From: Lama guanicoe
Lineage: Eukaryota
Assembly (NCBI GenBank): GCA_013239625.1
Contig: MU055744.1
Coordinates: forward strand, 526,355 to 590,354
DNA: 64,000 bases
Reading direction: 5' to 3'
The notes under the pieces are model-generated. The model made no database searches. It was not told where the DNA came from and saw nothing but the letters and a program-made list of their open reading frames with translations. Within the stretch, counting starts at the first letter, position 1. Every line of letters starts with the position of its first letter. This document shows positions 20,001-44,740 of this stretch, piece after piece. The translations under genes were made by a program, and so were the position numbers.

Positions 20001-22285
20001 GGAATAGGAAGCAGGCAAGCAAGCAGATGCAACAGCTCGGAGCTGCTAACTGCGGTCGGTGCTGCGCCGCCGAAGAGTGGGGCGCCGGGACCCGGAGGGC
20101 GTTTGGGCCGGACCAACCCTCTGAGGAGCCCACGGGAAGGGAGAGAGTGTCCCACCGGAGGCTGGGGTGGGGTGAGATTTGGAGAATCTGGGGGGGCTGG
20201 GGAGAGAGAAGGCCAGCATGGCCAGGGTGGGCAGAGGGCACGGGGCTGGGAGGGGACCAGGGCCTGACCAGTCACAGAAAGGCCTTTAGATTCTGTTCTC
20301 ATGACAAGGCAGCCCTGGGGTTTAGGGAAGGGAGGTGGCAGGGTCTGATCTGCGATTTGAGAACTCTGCCTGACTGTGGAGGAGGGGTCGAGGGCGCCAA
20401 GGTGGTTGTCCTGGGGCAGCTGAAAGGGTCGCTCGAGTGATGACTGGGCTTGGCCTGGGGGTGCAGCCAGGCGAGAAGTTTCAGGGTGGATGGCGAATCT
20501 CATTCGGAGAGTGGGGACAGGACATGCTGATGGCTGGGGTGGGGCTGGAAAACCAAGGCTGGTCTAGAAGCTGGCTTGGGGCTTGGGTGGATAAGAGGCC
20601 TTCACTGCAGGGGGAGACACAGGGAGAAGCTGGGGGTGGGGGAGCCAGGGCCTCAGGGTGGGGTGTCCTGGGGGAGGAGCCTGGGAGAAGACGCTGGGTG
20701 TGGGGGGCCAAGTCAGAGGCTGGGGGCTCGCCATCCATTGCTGCTGTGGGGTTGGGTCCAGTGCAATGTCCCCTGCTTCTTGCCTGAGGGCCCAGCCCAG
20801 ACCCCCAGCCCCGGGCCTGGCGGGTTCCCAGGGAGGGGTTCCCATCCAGGTAGCCCACCCAGGGCCCGGCTTTCCTCCTGGTCGAGGGAGGGGAAGGAAG
20901 GTGCAATTGTTAAACTTGCTGTGCATCGTGGCGCTCGCGACGGCATGTGTGTGAAGTGCATTCTCACCACATCTGTATTTAAGCCATGTTGCTTCCACCT
21001 TTACAGAGTGAGGACCCCGGTCCTAAGCTGCTAAGCGCCCCACCCCAGGGGGTAGGAGAGCTGTGGGTCTGTGACTTCCGGCCTCCGGGTCTTCTCACTC
21101 TACCAGGTTGCCCTGCTGGGATTCCAGTCAGCTCCGCCCTTGCACCCCCTCCCAAGGCTGGAGCTCTCCTCCCCAGTTCCACCCTTGCAGCAGGGGACCA
21201 GGTAGACCAGACAGCTGAACAGTGGCCCTGGCCAGGCCAGGGCCAGGAGCCTTGCGTCTCTCAACTGCCGGTGCCTCATCTTGCATGCAGGGAGACTGGG
21301 GCAGGGACACAGGCTGCCTCGGGGCCGAGACCCTCAGGATCCACAGCCCTGCTCGCCCTTGTCCGGCTGCCCCTCCTCCGAACAGATCTCCGCTCAGCCC
21401 TGCATACACACCTGCCGAGACACACTCTCCCGGACTCGGCAGCTTTGCCTGCTGACTGTCTGGTTCCCCCGGTGCAATCTGAGAACAAAGATGTCAAGAA
21501 AAGCAAAGGCCATTAAATGCACCAGCGAAGGTCGGGGTTTAGGAAAAACAGCAAAAGGAAGTAAGACACGTCAATTTCCACGGGCTCTCCTGCTGGTGTC
21601 GGCCAGCAACAGTGACAAATTGGAGATAGGCTGAAATTCTGGACCCGCCCCACTATTGGGGGAAGATCCTTGCCGCCCTCTGGGCCGTCCGGATGCGGGG
21701 AGGTGGGGCGGGGAACTGCTTGGCCTCCAAGACCACTTCCCGAAGTCTTTGTTCTGGCTAAGAAACGCGAGGCTGAGACTGAACGGGGAGGTCGCTTGGG
21801 GCTCCGGAAGGATGGGACGGCCCTGCAGCAGAGCAGTCGGAGGCTTCCGAGGCTCGGAGGCTGGCTGATGACTCCTTTTCTGACTTGCGTGGTTTGCTGT
21901 CCTTCTGCAGAGAGACTAGAACCTCCAGGAGATACTGTCTAAGGGCCCGAGAGCGGGAGTCCTTGTTTTGCCCCTGGTCTCGAGGGGAAAGCCTTCTCCG
22001 CCACTGAGCGTGCTGCGAGCTTGGGTTTTACATTCCTACCCCGTGTAGCTCTGTTCTAGGTCCCCGAGAGTTCTGCTGTAGCTGGATCTTTAGTTTTGTC
22101 AGATGCATTTTCTTTCTGTGTCCTTGACAATAATCACAGAGCTTTCCCTCTTCAGTCTGTCATCATGGTAAATTATGTGGATGGATTTGTAAACGTTAAA
22201 CCATCCTTGCATTCTGAGACAACCCCTCCTGGGTCAAGATGCATCGTCCTTTTTCTGTGTTGCTAGATTTCCTGTACCGCTAATA

Positions 22286-22420
22286 TTTTTTAAACATTTT
22301 TTGTTGATTTATAGTCGTTTTACAATGTTGTGTCGAACTCCAGTGTAGAGCACAATTTTTCAGTTGTACATGAACATGTATATATTCACTGTCGCATTTT
22401 TTTCTCTGTGAGCTACCATA
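22286..22420 (-). mobile_element. Young 5'-truncated L1 3' end (camelid-type) nested in the old L1
   Basis: T-run then TTGATTTATAGTCGTTTTACAATGTTGTGTCGAACTCCAGTGTAGAGCACAATTTTTCAGTTGTACATGAACAT...GAGCTACCATA. Flanks GCTAATATTTT and GCCAGCATTTT may be a decayed target-site duplication. Confidence 0.75.
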
Positions 22421-24389
22421 TTGCCAGCATTTTGTTAAAGACCTTCTTGTCTGCAGTCATGAGGAGTATTGGTTCCTAGCTGTCTTTCTTCAGTGCTCTT
22501 GTCTCTTTTTGTGTCAGGATTATGCTGGCCTCATAAAGCAAGCTGAGGAATTCTCCCTACTCTTTTGTTGTCTGAAATGGTTCACGCAGCTTTGATGCAG
22601 TATCTTTTTGAATGTTTGATAAAATCACCAGTGAAACCGTCTGGACCTGGAACTTCCTTGGTGGGAAGGTTTGTTTCCCTTGTTTAAAAATTCATTTAAA
22701 AAAAAGGCTACAGAAATAGTCAGATCTTGTCTCTCACTTAGTGTGAATTTGGGGGTAAGTATTTTTTTTTTAAGGAATTTGTCCTTTTAGCTGCAGTTGT
22801 CAGCATGAGGTTATACATGATGTTCTCTTATTAAAGTTTTAATGTTACTGAATTTATCAGCAGAAAGTTACTCATACTACCTTTTTATTGTCCCCTGAAG
22901 ACCCGAAACAACAACCAGTCTTACATCCCTGGTACTGAAGATTTATGTTTTTCTCTCATGTTATTTTGGTCATGCTGGCTAGGATCTTGTCAACTGTTTG
23001 ATCTTTTCAAAGAATCAGCTTTTGGCTTTGTTAATTTTCTCTATGTTTTGTTGGCTTCCAATTTCTTTCCTTATTATTATTTTTTCTTCCTTCTATTCAC
23101 TCTGGGTTGATCTTGCTCTTCTGTCAGCCCTTGGTAGAGCCTCAGGTTGCTGATTGTAGAGCTCTGAATAGACACAGGCTATACTCTGACACAAGCTGTT
23201 CATTCCCCTCAGAGCACTGCTTTCACTGCACCCCACAGATTGTCATATGCTGTCTTTCCAAGGTCATTCAGTCTGAAGTATTTTCTGCTCTCCACGTGAC
23301 TTCTCTCCTGAGCATGGGTCATTAGCTGCTGCTGGTGCCCGTGTGTTTGGGGTTCCTAGGCATCTGGCTGTTCTTGGTTTCTGATTCAGTTCCATTGTGG
23401 TCAGGAAATGTGCTCTAACACTAAGTCTTTTAAATTTAGTTTACTTGCTGTGTGGCTCAGAAAATGGTCTGTCTTGGTGAGCAGACTATGTACACTTAGG
23501 AAAGGTGTGAATTTTTCATTGTTGGGGACGGCGTTTGGTACATGTCAACTCCGTCATGCTGACAGTGTTGCAGGTCCTCCGTGTTTTTACTGACTTTTTT
23601 TTTCATTCTGCTTTTCCATCAGTCGTTGGGAGAGGGGCATTAAAAGTGCTCTCCAGTGATTGAGGAATTGTAGTACTTTCTTCAGTTCTGTCAGTGTCTC
23701 TTCCATGTATTTAGAGGCTCTGTTATTAGGAGCACACACATCATGGGTGCTTTGTCTTCCTGATAACTTTGCCCTCTTATCCGTATGAAACGTCCATCTC
23801 CAGCTTTGGCAACATTCTTTGTCCTGGTGTCTATTACATCTAATATTAATAGAGCTACTGCAGCTTATTTACATTCTTTGCACAGTATATATGTTTTTAT
23901 CCATTTACTTTCAACCTGTTTTTGTCTTTATATTTAAAGTGCTCCTCCTGTAGACAGTATAGAGTTGGGTCTTGCTTTTTTTTTTTTTAAATTAATTCAT
24001 CCTGATAACCTCTGCCTTTTAATTGGAGTACTTATTCTATTAAAATTCAAGTGTATTTTTATATTTTTTTTCACTTTCTCTTCTGTTTTTTGTTTGTTTT
24101 TGTTTTTCTTTACTACTTTCTTACTTTATTTGATTTACTATTTAAAAAATAACTCCATTATAACTTACCTCTTGAATTTTAAGTTATGCATCTTTGCATT
24201 GTGATTTTAGTGGTTATCCAGTGATTGCACCTGTGCTCCATAATTTTTCACAGTCACCTGGGTTAACACTGTGCCACTTCATAAGCATGTAAATCCATTC
24301 ACACCCTCATCCTTTATGTTATTGTCAAATGTATTACTTCACATACATTATAAACCCTGAAGACAGTACTTCTTGCTTTAACCAGTCAT

Positions 24390-24754
24390 TTTTTTTAGGG
24401 TTAATAGTTTTTTTGTATATATATGTTTTATTGAAGTATGGTCAGTTCACAATCTTGGGTCAGTTTCTGTGTACAGCATGATGCTTTGGTCGGACATGAA
24501 CACACATATATTTATTGTTGTATTCTTTTCCACCATAAGTTACTGCAAGATATTGAATACAGCTCCGTGTGCTCTACAGCATAAACTTGTTGTTTATCAG
24601 GTTTTGTGAGAATCCTCCTGTATTACGAAGTGAGAAACACTCTGCCAGAGCTCAGTAGGTATTCTGCACGATTCAGTGGATCTGTAGATGTAATTCTTGG
24701 TGCATTTGTGGGAGAGGGCGAGCTGTGGGTCCCCACTCTGCCATCTTGGTCAGC
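24390..24754 (-). mobile_element. Short L1 derivative: 5' UTR start fused to 3' UTR and poly(A) tail (internally deleted or spliced L1)
   Basis: Minus strand begins CCAAGATGGCAGAGTGGGGACCCACAGCTCGCCCTCTCCCACAAATGCACCAAGAATTACATCTACA (YY1 motif 24740-24748), joins at 24598/24597 to ATAAACAACAAGTTTATGCTGTAGAGCACA...ACTTCAATAAAA (AATAAA 24427-24432) and an A-rich tail. Confidence 0.75.
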
Positions 24755-27700
24755 TAATAGTCATACAGGTTTTAAAGAAATTAAGGGGAAAGTCGTCACT
24801 TTCTATCGACCTAGGTACTTGCCACTTCTGATGTAATGCATTCATTTCTGAAGGGCCACGTTTCCACCTGACATCGCTGCCTTCTGCCGAGGAAGACCCT
24901 CTAGCATTCCCGGTACTGCAGGCTCCTGGAGAAGGGTGTTCTCTGTCGCCCTGTAACTGAAAATGTCTTTATTCTTCATTGTTGAAGCTACTGTAATTGG
25001 CCGCAGACGTCTTGGTTGAGAGGGTTTTCTTCAAGGATGTTCTCTAAGACGCTAGTCCTTCTCTTAGCAGTTTCGCCCCTTCTTCACGTCAGGTGATTTC
25101 TATCATTCCCTCTTCAAGTTCACGGATTCCTTCATCTGTCATCTGTAACCTGCTAATTAAGCCCATCCGGTAAATTTCAGAACTTAAGACGTTTTGTTTT
25201 TCAGTTCTAAATTCTCCATTTGGATATCTTTACATTTTCTGTTTCTCTGCTTGGTGTTCTCTCTCTCCGTCCATTGTGAGGGCATTTTCCTTCCTTTGTT
25301 GACGTAGTTTAAAACGGCTCTCCTTGTCCACCTAGTCCACATCGGGTCCATCTCTGGGTCCTTCCCCTTGTGAATGTGTCATATTTTCCTGACTCTTCAC
25401 TTGTTGAATACATTTGGAAAGTATTATTGCTTCGTTCTGAGACTTTGGGTTCTGCCGAATGGCTCCAAAGTGTTGGTCTTTCTAAGGCAGTTTGCTTGGT
25501 TAGACCCACACTATGATCTCTGTCACACCTGTGGATGACTGAGCCCAAGCCCCAGTTCACCCGCTCCTTGCACGTGCTTGAGGGTCCAGCCGGAAGCCCA
25601 GGCGGAGCTTTTGTATGGAATGCAGGCTTCCTTTCTCGGCTCTCTCCTTTTCTGGGCTCCTCTCACCGCCCAGCAGCCCTGCTCACCTGGGCTCCCTCCT
25701 GGGGCTCCTTCCCTCCAGAAGGACAGCAGGTTTTCCCACTGGGGTGCCACCTGCTTGGCACTGCCCTTGTGACCACGGCTGCCTTGTGGTCACAGCTGCA
25801 GAAACCTGAGATTCACTCCACCCACCCCAGCCTCCACGTTCTCATTTCCATCCCACACCTGCCTTTATGTCCACTGCCCAGAGCCTGCAGCTAACGGTTG
25901 TTTTGCACTTTGTCCAGCGTTTATAGCTGTTTTCTCGCAAGAGGATTAGTTTGTTAGGAGCTTATCTCTCCTGGAAATGAAACCTTGGAGGCCACTCCTT
26001 ACTTTTAGAATCGTTTTCCAGCTGGAGGACCAAGGAAGGAGGAGCCGCTTTGTTTTCAAAGGTGGCCGGTCCTGGTCCCCTGCAGCTACAGGGGCAAACT
26101 TTAACTTCTCTCTCTCCTCCGGCGTTTTGTCCCGGGCTCCCAGAAGCAGCCAGGTGGTGCCTTGAATATTCTACCTGGAAACTCCTTAGGTCACTCACTG
26201 AGTTCATTAAGTTTATTTCTGATTTTCCACAAAAGCGCAGGCAATGACAGAAGCAGGCATGTCCTCCCGCCTCCCAGCCTGCCCGTCCCCATGACATCCC
26301 CGTGACATCCCGTGACCGAGACCGGGGCGTGGCCCCCGTCACGGTCACTTGTGGTGAACCACCACAGCGCACTGTGGTCCCTTCTGCCCCACCCCCAGTT
26401 GCACCTGCATGAATCCACCCCATCACTCTGTGTAGCCCTGAAAGTGGTCCCCCACACCAGTTCACGTCTCGCTCTTCCCATCAGAACCCTGCATTGTTCG
26501 TGGTGTCCACAAGATGAGGGGCAACCTCCACACCTGGAACCTGACCCCTGACCCTCCCTTCTTGGAATGAGTGGTGGGGGCTGCCTTCCTCTGCAAGGAC
26601 TTGGCCTGGGGCCTGCCGACCACCGCCCCCTCAGGCAGACCATGGCTGGCCACGCCACCAGCGGCACGGCTGCTGCGCCCTGGGGAGGGCTTCCTGCCCA
26701 CTGGTCACAGAGGGCTCTCACTCAGGTTTCTCACCCTTGCCTATAAACCAGTAATAGAGGCGTGGATGGTGGGGTGGCGTGGGGGCCTGCGGTCAGGCTG
26801 GGCAATGACCACCGCAGACCACCACGTCCCGTGAAGATTCTTTTCCAGCCAGTCTGTTATGGACAAGTTCTGGAGGAGAAGTTTCTGCACAGCACTATGG
26901 ACATTATTCCTGGAAATGAGAATGGAGCTAGCATGAAATCCCCCACACATCCTCCCAAGCCTGAGCTGAGCTGAGATGGGATGGAGGTGAGGGCGACGGC
27001 AGGGCTACTAAGGCTGGGGTTAGGGGTGGAGTGGGGTGCAGCTGGGGGTGTGGGTGCAGGTGGGGGTGCAGGTGGCCAAGTCTCCCTGGTGCCGACAGTG
27101 CTGCCTGACCGGCTTTCAGATGAGCATCCCCCCAGGACCCGGTTTCCAAGGCCGCGTTCAGGGAGCGACGGTGGGTCGTGTAATACACTGTGTTTTGTCA
27201 CAGAGGAAGGTTATTGATCAAACAGCTCAATTCTCTTAGCAGGTGCAGGGCCTTCCGTCCCCATTTGCTGCAACACAGAGTGGTTACTCTTTAAACAGCC
27301 GGCGATCTGCGTGGCCCCTGACCATGGTCGGCGGAGCTGCTGTAGGAAGGCGGGCATCTTGCATTTTGAGGTCAGCGGGCTTTCTTGTCCTTTTCCTGGG
27401 CACCTGTCCGTCCCTATTGTCATGTCACTTGGTCTTCCTGCATATGGAGCTGCTGATGGCTGGTGGCTTCTGGAAGCACTGCCTTCCTGGGCTCGGAGGC
27501 CGTTACTTTTCTCTGTCTCTTTCTCCCTGGGAGAGGGGCACGTCCTGTCCTTCCCTCCCATTCTGAGTGTTTTGAGTGTCTCTCCCCGGGGCCCCGCCTT
27601 GTCTGCAGGCTGTGGGTCGTGAGCACTCTTGCGCTCTCCTCCCGGCACCTCGGCCCAGCTCCCCTCCTGCCCCAGCTGTCCTGGCAGCCCTACTTGGACC

Positions 27701-28869: not shown

Positions 28870-30230
28870 AGAAAAGTGAAAGGGAGCTGTCCCTTAAACA
28901 GATCAGGAGATGCCCAACCACATTCATCACATTAGAGGCGCAAATTGAAACGACACGGAGACGCCATCTCTCAGTGGCCAGACTGAAAAATTCTGGGTGT
29001 GTGACGCCTGCTCTGCGGTGAGACTGGGAGGAACCGGCGCGCTCGTCGTTTGTTGCAGGAATGTGTTTGGGGTTGAACTGTGTCCCCCCAAAGATATGCT
29101 GCCGCCCCAACTCCTGGTACCTGTGGCTGTGGCCCTGTTTGGGGAGAGGCCTTTGCGGGTGTGGTCAGGTCAAGACGAGACCATCAGGGCGGTGCAATCC
29201 CACAGGACTGGGGTCCCGGTAAGAAGAGGGGAGAGCGCCCAGGGGGAAGATGCTGCGTGACAGTGGAGGTGGGGATGGGAGCGGTGCGCGGCCTAGCCCA
29301 GGAGCGCCACGTTCTCTGGCAACACCAGAAGCAAAGGCAAAGTCTCCCCCACGGGTTTCAGAGGGAGCGGGGCTCTGCTGACCCTTGGTTTTGTACTTCT
29401 GTCCTCCAGAACCGAAAGAGAAGACGTTTCTGTTGTCTCGAGCTGCCCAGTTTGCGGTCCCGTTTTCCGGCTGCCCTGGGAAATTAACACAGAATGCAAA
29501 ATAACATAACCCGGCGGCCTGTAGCCGAAGTCCGCTGGCAGCAGCACGGCGGGCTGCAGACCCCAGACTGCCGGCGAGGGACAGGGGGGTGAGGTGCAGA
29601 GCGGCCCCGGCGGTTCTGCGCAGCTGCGAAAACAACAGCGTCATCCTCCATCCTGGCCCACAGGACCACGGGGCATGTCGGAAGCGAAAGTGTGCGGAGG
29701 CCACAGTTAACTGAAGAAAGGGGCTGTGACTTCGGATAATCCGTGCAAAGACACACACTGTTCCTCCATTACGCTGTGAAACGTGGCAGGGAAAATTAAA
29801 CCCCCGGTGAGGATGTGGTCTCTGGTGGGTGGGGACAGGGAGGGGCTCCGGCCGCCTCTGCGTGTGCCGCCTTGTGAGCTATTTCAGGAACCTTCAAACA
29901 CAGTGAGCACCGAGCGAGCTCTGCCCTGTGCATCCTCCCGCTGAGAAGAGGCGAAGCCACCGAACTATTCCCGGCGTCTTTGTTGTCAGCGAGAGCAGGG
30001 ATGCTGTTACGCTGAACATACCGTGTGTGCGCGTCCGGGGCGCACACACTCCCCGGGGGCCCAGCAAGCAGGGTTAAGACGCTGGAGGCAAGAGGAAAGA
30101 AACACAGTCACCTGGTGGAATAAATTGTATTAAAAGCCAGGAATCCGATGTTTGACTTGGAAAAAGCACTGAATTGGGATGTGTCTTCTCCTGAACGTGT
30201 GTGTGAGAAAAGGCCTAGAAGCACTGACCG
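28870..30230 (+). mobile_element. Old L1 (L1M) ORF2 end/3' UTR remnant interrupted by an MLT1C LTR
   Basis: AGATGCCCAACCACATTCATCACATTAGAGGCGCAAATTGAAACGACACGGAGACGCCATCTC...TTGTTGCAGGAATG, resuming after the LTR as GAATGCAAAATAACATAACC. Confidence 0.6.
29064..29491 (+). mobile_element. MaLR solo LTR (MLT1C-like) with intact 5-bp target-site duplication
   Basis: Starts TGTTTGGGGTTGAACTGTGTCCCCCAAAGATATG, ends GCCCTGGGAAATTAACACA (TG...CA), flanked by GAATG at 29059-29063 and 29492-29496. Confidence 0.9.
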
Positions 30231-40299: not shown

Positions 40300-40720
40300 G
40301 CAGTGTGCTGGCTGCGCCTACAAAGAACCGCAAGCCGGGGGGCCGACAACAGCAGAAATGAGTCCTCTCCCAGGTCTGGGGGCTGGAGTCCAAAACCAAG
40401 GTGTCCCAGGGCCCTGCTCCCTCTGGAGTCTCCAGGGGAGGGTCCTGCCTGCCCCTTCCGGCTCCTCGTGGCCCCAGGAGTCTCTGGGCTTGTGGCCGCG
40501 TCGCCCCAGTCCCTGCCTCCACCTTCATGTGGCTTCTCTTCTGTGTCCGACGTCCCCCTGCCCTCCTTTGATGAGGACCTTCGCCGTAAGGCCGGGCCCA
40601 CCCGGACCGCCCAGGGCTCCAACCCCCTGCACACCCTCAGTCACACACGCACAGACCCTGATCCCATGGGGCCTAACGTGCACAGGCTCCAGGCACTGGA
40701 GCCTGACCGCTTTGGGGCCA
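40300..40720 (-). mobile_element. MaLR LTR (MLT1C-like)
   Basis: CAACAGCAGAAATGAGTCCTCTCCCAGGTCTGGGGGCTGGAGTCCAAAACCAAGGTGTC...CTCCAGGGGAGGGTCCTGCCTGCCCCTTCCGGCT...CTTGTGGCCGCGTCGCCCCAGTCCCTGCCTCCACCTTCATGTGGC. Confidence 0.82.
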
Positions 40721-43714: not shown

Positions 43715-44740
43715 GCACCGCGCACCCACGTGAAGGGTACAACTCGTGGGCTGTACCCCGGAGACTGACGCATTGCAACTGACTGTACTTCAATTAAAAA
43801 AATAAAGTGTGCAGTTCGATGGTGTGTAGTGTACTTGCAGATGAACACAGCCACCACCAGAGTCCCGTGCTGGGGATATTTTTATCACCTCAAGGAGGAC
43901 CCGCTCCCGCTGCTGGCGCGCTCCCCGTGGCCCGCGGTCCCGGGCAGCCGTCAGTCTGCTCCACGTCCCCGGAGATTTCCGTCTCCTACTCACCTCGTCT
44001 GGGGCCTAGAACACCACGTGGGCTTCTGTGTCGGCTCCCCTCCCTTCCCAAGCGTCCGAGGTTCCTCCACGCCGCAGTGGGTCCCAGGGCCTCACTGCTT
44101 CTCATGCTGAATAGAACCCCTTGTGCGGCTGGACCACGCCTGCGTGTCCGCGCATCACTGGTGACGCACGGCCGTCTCCTCCACGGGCTCCTCTGAGCCT
44201 CCCCGGAGCCCGGTCTGCTGCCTGCCGGGTAGACCAAGCCAGGTGCCACTAAGAACTCTGCTAACAGCCGGTGTTTCGAGAACCCCCACAGCGAGGGCCC
44301 CTGACCCAGCTCCTCGGCCCCCACCCTTGGTGCCAGTGTCCTTGGCTGGCGTTAGCAGGCCTCCTGCTGGGCCAGAGTCCCCCACTTGCTACCCAGTCAG
44401 GTTCCTCTTGTGACCTCTGTCCACTGACAGGCCCTCCTTGGCTGTCAGTCCCCGGCCGCCTCGCTGTGTTTGGAGTTGAGCTCGTTTCCACGCCGGAGTC
44501 GCTCTCACCTACCGCGGCGACTTGGAGACAGCCTGCGCAGCTGTTTTTAACCCGGGCCTGGTGCAAGGGCTTACTTTTCCAGCAGGCACCTGGCTGCTCC
44601 CACCGTTAGGCGCTGAGCCCACCTGCTGCTCTCCGCGCTCGTAGGCGGGATTCTGTGTGGACGTGTGTTTCTGTTTGTCTTGGGTGGACGTGGGAGTGCG
44701 ATTTCTAGGTCACACGGCTGAAATTTGCATTTTGCAGGAC
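43715..44740 (-). mobile_element. L1MB-like 3' end (antisense, GC-substituted), fragmented, with a small young L1 tail inserted
   Basis: AAGTGTGCAGTTCGATGGTGTGTAGTGTACTTGCAGA...ATATTTTTATCACCTCAAGGAGGACCC...CTTCTCATGCTGAATAGAACCCCTTGTGCGGCTGGACCAC, resuming ~44630 (TGTGTGGACGTGTGTTTCTGTTTGTCTTGGGTGGA). Confidence 0.72.
43750..43804 (+). mobile_element. 55-bp young L1 3' terminus (camelid-type) with A-tail
   Basis: GCTGTACCCCGGAGACTGACGCATTGCAACTGACTGTACTTCAATTAAAAAAATA is homologous to the reverse complement of the 3' end at 24425-24478, and is flanked by a diverged ~17-18 bp duplication. Confidence 0.75.

Follow-up and report, generated by a model that had tools for sequence, protein, structure and literature searches.

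A multi-copy L1 derivative without either open reading frame, whose internal joint was very likely made by splicing

How did a unit of only 365 nt come to carry what appear to be the two extreme ends of an L1 element with no coding region between them, and is it a solitary accident or one member of a family? The unit (called mini-L1 here) lies on the minus strand of the window, by which we mean the whole 64,000-nt stretch of DNA that was analyzed, and its features and immediate surroundings are as follows (all positions are those of the window):

21950..25500 (limits approximate), minus strand: host L1, old and decayed and oriented like the element, recognized by an AT-rich tract and an ORF2p match
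24755..24773, minus strand: 5' copy of a candidate target-site duplication (at most 19 nt), proposed from the sequence
24390..24754, minus strand: the whole mini-L1 element, 365 nt, from the sequence
24598..24754, minus strand: 5' part, the start of an L1 5' UTR and putative first exon, 157 nt, 50% GC
24740..24748, minus strand: YY1-like motif CAAGATGGC close to the 5' terminus, from the sequence
24597..24598, minus strand: joint at which the 5' part meets the 3' part, the putative splice junction, with one G common to both sides
24427..24597, minus strand: 3' part, the end of an L1 3' UTR up to the AATAAA and putative second exon, 36% GC
24432-24427, minus strand: AATAAA, from the sequence
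24390..24426, minus strand: A- or AT-rich tail, interrupted and decayed, from the sequence
24379..24408, minus strand: region in which the 3' copy of that duplication may lie, as a 6-nt or 7-nt match

The initial annotation of this locus described an L1 5' end fused to an L1 3' UTR at 24598/24597, and both the sequence and the depth of matching contigs (below) bear this out. It gave the sizes as ~155 and ~205 nt; we find 157 nt for the 5' part and, on the other side of the joint, ~190 nt from the very end of an L1 3' UTR. The position of the joint stands, with the refinement that the G at 24598 could belong to the 5' or the 3' part (a 1-nt overlap). Judged by contig depth, the 3' part is the end of a high-copy repeat and the 5' part the end of a lower-copy repeat, and contigs from other loci match the 5' part as far as 24749-24750. 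It is likely that the 5' part is itself of L1 origin, given the unjoined contigs that diverge from it (below), its YY1-like motif and its join to an L1 3' end; we take CAAGATGGC at 24748-24740 (minus strand) to be a YY1-type motif, to which binding is predicted only. Three-frame translation of the 365-nt unit gave short frames only, with no room for ORF1 or ORF2, two frames of the element's head had no Pfam match, and a search of the window for another copy of the 5' part found none. A 23-codon ATG frame (24745-24674, minus strand) begins within the YY1-like motif in the window copy. The predicted folding of the element is of unremarkable stability (z -1.09), and an Rfam scan of 21500-26000 returned nothing at gathering score and two weak matches, neither of them to tRNA, 7SL or 5S. 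An Rfam match to mir-9235 at 24688-24755 (plus strand, antisense to the head) reaches 24.3 bits (E 0.09), where the gathering score is 95, and is probably due to chance.

The element sits in an AT-rich tract of ~3.5 kb, and the window around this tract is GC-rich. One frame of the tract (22099-22233) resembles residues 570-603 of human L1 ORF2p (E 4.7e-5), from which we conclude that the host is an old L1 in the same orientation as the element; the tract and the frame match together uphold the earlier proposal that the element is nested in an older L1. Two other frames of the tract had no PDB match, none of 19 of its frames scored above the Pfam cut-off, and a Pfam scan of 85 of the 174 long frames of the window gave no matches. 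The host L1 contains a second short insert at 22285-22415 (minus strand, ~125 nt, with an A-rich end) that resembles the element's 3' part (71% over 109 nt); by its size it could be an ALPINE1 or an L1 cut short at its 5' end. Elsewhere in the window, 43750-43804 has a weak likeness (E 0.02) to the end of an L1 3' UTR in the orientation opposite to the element, 29359-29458 and 40327-40425 form an inverted 100-nt repeat pair that is 75% alike, and 2285-2450 is an assembly gap of 166 N.

Candidate marks of L1 insertion on the element are its AATAAA, its A-rich tail and a 5'-TTTT/A-3' endonuclease-type site on the plus strand at 24770-24774, 19 nt from the element's 5' end; its flanking duplication is no better than chance. 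Both of the duplications that had been claimed are indeed present, one of 7 nt (24755-24761 and 24402-24408) and one of 6 nt (24759-24764 and 24384-24389), but their significance is lost on shuffling: when the 25-nt flank was shuffled 5000 times, 952 of the shuffled versions scored as well as the observed duplication, and the duplications therefore prove nothing alone. The TTTT/A site fits a cut by the L1 endonuclease (for the consensus of its sites see PMC5860796) and would be compatible with a 19-nt duplication that has since decayed. The same 5' end joined to the same flank was found in run X17 with 4 of 153 letters different (1 in X1 and 1 in X6), so the insertion predates the divergence of that more distant relative. 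In 16 of the 24 listed runs, at least half of the words sampled from 23900-25400 are present.

Does the same joint occur elsewhere? Contigs of four public runs were aligned to 24310-24850 at 80% likeness, and 32 pieces were listed from more than 10,000. Five of the 32 come from the window locus, none of which spans the joint, and 27 come from other loci. Among these 27 listed pieces, 10 cross the joint (such pieces were found in all four runs), so the junction is not unique; a unique junction with only microhomology was among the outcomes that the initial annotation had named as speaking against it. A further 8 stop at 24594-24603 and continue with at least 40 unaligned letters, as expected of unjoined L1 5' UTRs, 8 end too close to the contig end to judge, and 1 lies only in the 3' part. 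The crossing pieces can be assigned to other loci because 13.4-18.9% of their letters differ from the window copy. Three of the 10 listed crossing pieces (X1 r2, X6 r26 and X19 r18) satisfy a 31-letter minimum on either side of the joint, and the remaining ones have 14-30 letters on its 3' side, mostly since the contig ends there. At least four different crossing contigs are from X17 alone, and in two X1/X6 pairs the listed pieces seem to represent one locus each, sampled from two organisms. Loose ends were also seen at 24675-24681 and 24724-24731, where other 5' UTR types have part of the head in common and then diverge; several L1 subfamilies thus feed the pile of 5' ends. Crossing contigs are present in RNA-type data as well, 2 in X19 (a recorded RNA-Seq run) and 4 in X17 (which we guess to be RNA), though contigs reveal neither the strand nor the level of an RNA and DNA may be present in both runs; the share of the 5'-end pile that reaches 24599 is 0.98 in X17 and ~0.37 in X19, which is inconsistent.

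The number of joined copies can be approached through the depth at 24599. At 24601 the commoner letter in the contigs is not that of the window copy (89% of X1 depth), and at 24599 the disagreement is partial (43% of X1 depth). A G at 24599 is carried by 35 and 37 contigs in the two DNA runs and by 23 and 14 in the other two; contigs with this G plus the 24601 mismatch are aligned at this position chiefly if the element's 3' part comes next. With +2/-3 or +1/-1 scoring, the count at 24599 could include some unjoined copies. In two DNA runs the depth at 24599 is 102 and 106 times that of the unique flank when only G is counted and 241 and 246 times when all letters are counted, which suggests about 100-250 joined copies, or one to a few hundred, in the genome as an order of magnitude, contig depth not being copy number and copies less than 80% alike being missed. 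In the two DNA runs the joined copies account for 0.47 and 0.53 of the 5'-end pile, about half, but their depth equals 0.4-1.1% of the maximum reached within the 3' part, where depth rises as high as 246,487 in X1 against 10 on the unique flank; this disparity would be expected because a short RNA is usually copied whole. The multi-copy family of ORF-less L1 derivatives is both old and real, and its origin by splicing is very likely.

The acceptor side of the joint can be read in L1 copies that lack it. Loose ends behind 24598 are present in 121, 122, 103 and 44 3' UTR contigs without the joint, with an agreement of 0.60-0.68, and on the minus strand they consist, in all four runs, of TACTAAC, then 17 letters ending in AAAATAG, and then the window's 3' part. 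The AAAATAG with its AG acceptor, which the first account had given for the L1 consensus, has thereby been found in unjoined copies, and the TACTAAC branch-site motif is an addition to the first account. TACTAAC places its branch A at -19, and no other AG intervenes between that motif and the AG at the joint; branch points generally lie ~18-40 nt upstream. Given the base composition of the host tract, and calculated post hoc, the chance of an exact TACTAAC in the 23-nt slot is ~0.002, that of a loose CTRAY is 0.08 and that of an AG at the edge is 0.089, so a branch motif together with an AG at the joint has a chance of the order of 1e-4 to 1e-2, depending on how strictly the branch motif is defined. 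The AG and the upstream branch-site motif, as sequence features, support splicing. Counting against it are the pyrimidine content between the branch motif and the AG (only 7 of 15 letters) and the G at 24598, whose fit to both sides permits a 1-nt microhomology reading. On the donor side, a GT would presumably have followed directly after position 157 of the 5' part. One listed locus (X1 r4 = X6 r28) aligns to 24594 and diverges after it, which would fit a donor-like GTAA. Searches with the end of the 5' part returned 4 loci from a viral contig collection, none of them element-like past the motif, 41 loci from a metagenome contig collection, none of them L1-like, and 30 loci from a genome contig collection, all of them titled as microbial records. 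Overall we consider it highly probable that the joint was made by splicing, with the GT donor the presumed part of that picture.

The explanation that we favor, with a probability of roughly 0.6, is that L1 RNA from which both ORFs had been spliced was copied back repeatedly in trans, and that the copies are mostly dead ends. The spliceosome would remove both L1 genes from a full-length L1 RNA as one long intron, leaving a polyadenylated RNA of ~350 nt from which no L1 protein could be made and for which ORF2p, and probably ORF1p, would have to be supplied in trans. Since the short RNA codes for no L1 protein, it most likely used the proteins of other L1s, whose enzymes would have copied it into the genome many separate times, and most of the resulting copies, with their shortened promoter, would be dead ends. 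Repeated splicing and dead-end copying account for the same data as a single founding splice and fit what is known of human SpIREs (below). Divergence from the window copy is 16.8% for crossing and 16.3% for non-crossing records (n = 8 and 6, p = 0.85); these 14 records are a selection by length out of more than 10,000, the comparison has little power, and their equal divergence is a weak argument for recurrent splicing over one master copy. The first reading of this locus had one splice give rise to an element mobilized in trans: its single-unit structure, its recurring joint and its AG have held up, while the founding of a self-propagating element by that one splice is conjecture.

It could nevertheless be that the promoter left in one spliced copy, or in a few, was sufficient for them to serve as source genes, which would make the family a self-propagating, non-autonomous L1 SIDE. 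The 5'-end share of the joined copies, about half where the human value is ~2%, points in this direction, as do the 157 nt retained, with the 5' terminus and the YY1-like motif, versus the 97 nt upstream of the human donor, and the fact that the copies are whole and have one joint in common. However, crossing records are no nearer to the window copy than non-crossing ones (a weak test), the shortness of the element alone explains its 5'-end share, given how little it contributes to 3'-end depth, and the promoters of human SpIREs are reported to be much weakened (PMC5860796). We regard source genes of this kind as a serious but unlikely possibility, and the idea of a splicing-born, protein-free Pol II parasite of mammalian L1, composed of a promoter head and a 3' tail in 350 nt, as correspondingly tentative; if it were true, an L1 SIDE would have overcome cis preference and matched its parent among complete 5' ends.

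Other routes to the same structure fare worse. A template jump or a DNA deletion at the 1-nt overlap, whose single product was then multiplied, would need no splicing, would make use of the G that fits both sides and would be at ease with a donor that is only presumed and with a poor pyrimidine tract, and R2 SIDEs have been proposed to arise by template jumps or recombination (PMC3414825). Yet the element breaks precisely where the first AG past a TACTAAC at -19 ends, and the low chance of that coincidence (1e-4 to 1e-2) makes such an origin improbable. Splicing normally precedes the export and translation of an RNA, and for that reason we think it very improbable that an L1 RNA was translated, retained ORF2p on its poly(A) tail, was spliced later in the nucleus and had its short form copied in cis, even if this course might square many copies with the cis preference of L1. 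Recruitment of ORF2p via the poly(A) tail, which that course would use, has been described (PMC5860796). Finally, a one-off deletion, two unrelated L1 fragments that happen to adjoin or an assembly error would agree with the weak duplication and with the listed window-locus contigs, none of which goes across the joint; the recurrence of the same joint in 10 listed records from other loci and in 4 of 4 runs has largely refuted these explanations, and we find them scarcely credible.

The suggestion that this is an undescribed family holds for the literature searched, which contains no report of a mini-L1 family or of any L1 SIDE; Repbase and Dfam, which could still list the family, are outside the scope of that search. 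The accessible portions of two camel repeat surveys (PMC8605555 and PMC6675863) do not mention it, and those of PMC3183009 and 10.1101/2025.02.02.635956 hold nothing on it. Repbase is reported to list alpaca L1 families and ALPINE1 (PMC6726744). A 2012 paper stated that an L1 offshoot of the ORF-less, two-ends kind had not been observed, and L1 has been thought to spawn no ORF-less offshoots since its own proteins favor its own RNA (PMC3414825). A family of some 100-250 copies that lack both ORFs shows that frequent copying of such an L1 RNA is possible. Should the copies owe their origin to splicing, they are the record of an L1 RNA-processing route that deletes the whole coding region and is a possible brake on L1. 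Counts of full-length L1 that rely on 5' ends of this type would be inflated about twofold in this lineage.

Among known short repeats, ALPINE1 is, like mini-L1, a short camelid repeat; it is classed as SINE2 in Repbase (PMC6726744), is about one-third of the length of mini-L1 and matches up to position 127, in a comparison by name, class and coordinates only. Mini-L1 itself was rejected as a SINE because Rfam found no Pol III small-RNA head and because its head is common to longer unjoined repeats. HAL1 and mini-L1 are both non-autonomous derivatives of the L1 clade, but HAL1 retains an ORF1-like gene (PMC5786205) and mini-L1 has short frames only; identity with HAL1 was rejected on the ground that mini-L1 is without such a gene. 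Processed pseudogenes and the TINEs of tarsiers resemble it in being polyadenylated Pol II RNAs copied in trans by L1 enzymes, with the difference that TINEs, of which there are ~29,000, are derived from LTRs (PMC5059674), whereas the source RNA of mini-L1 would be that of L1 itself. ORF-less, bipartite relatives of LINEs have been described as the R2 SIDE (PMC3414825), by Kojima 2018 (PMC5786205) and as the CR1-derived Persaeus (PMC6740152). Like SIDEs, mini-L1 is a parent LINE reduced to its two ends, without an ORF, dispersed in many copies and with a Pol II-type head; it differs in that deletion or a template jump has been proposed for the origin of SIDEs where splicing is proposed here, and self-propagation of mini-L1 is hypothetical.

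The closest parallel is with human SpIREs, in which spliced L1 RNA has been retrotransposed to leave exact internal joints (Larson et al. 2018, PMC5860796). The same source describes 116 copies of SpIRE97/622, all with one joint and spread across L1PA1-L1PA6 via repeated splicing, low-level mobility of 5'UTR/ORF1 SpIREs in trans, and a promoter activity that drops from 267-fold to 7-fold in SpIREs. Mini-L1 resembles SpIREs in having an exact internal joint that starts from a site near the start of the 5' UTR, more than 100 copies, and splicing before retrotransposition as its explanation, and its joint likewise recurs in separate insertions with an AG acceptor at the 3' edge. In the described SpIREs, however, the splice stays inside the 5' UTR or leads into ORF1, and the spliced copies of L1 known so far are rare and retain ORF2 (PMC5860796); the acceptor of mini-L1 is in the 3' UTR, its putative intron is far larger, and no ORF is left. 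SpIREs account for ~2% of human L1 5' ends (131 of 6,609; PMC5860796), and mini-L1 for about half of those in its pile.
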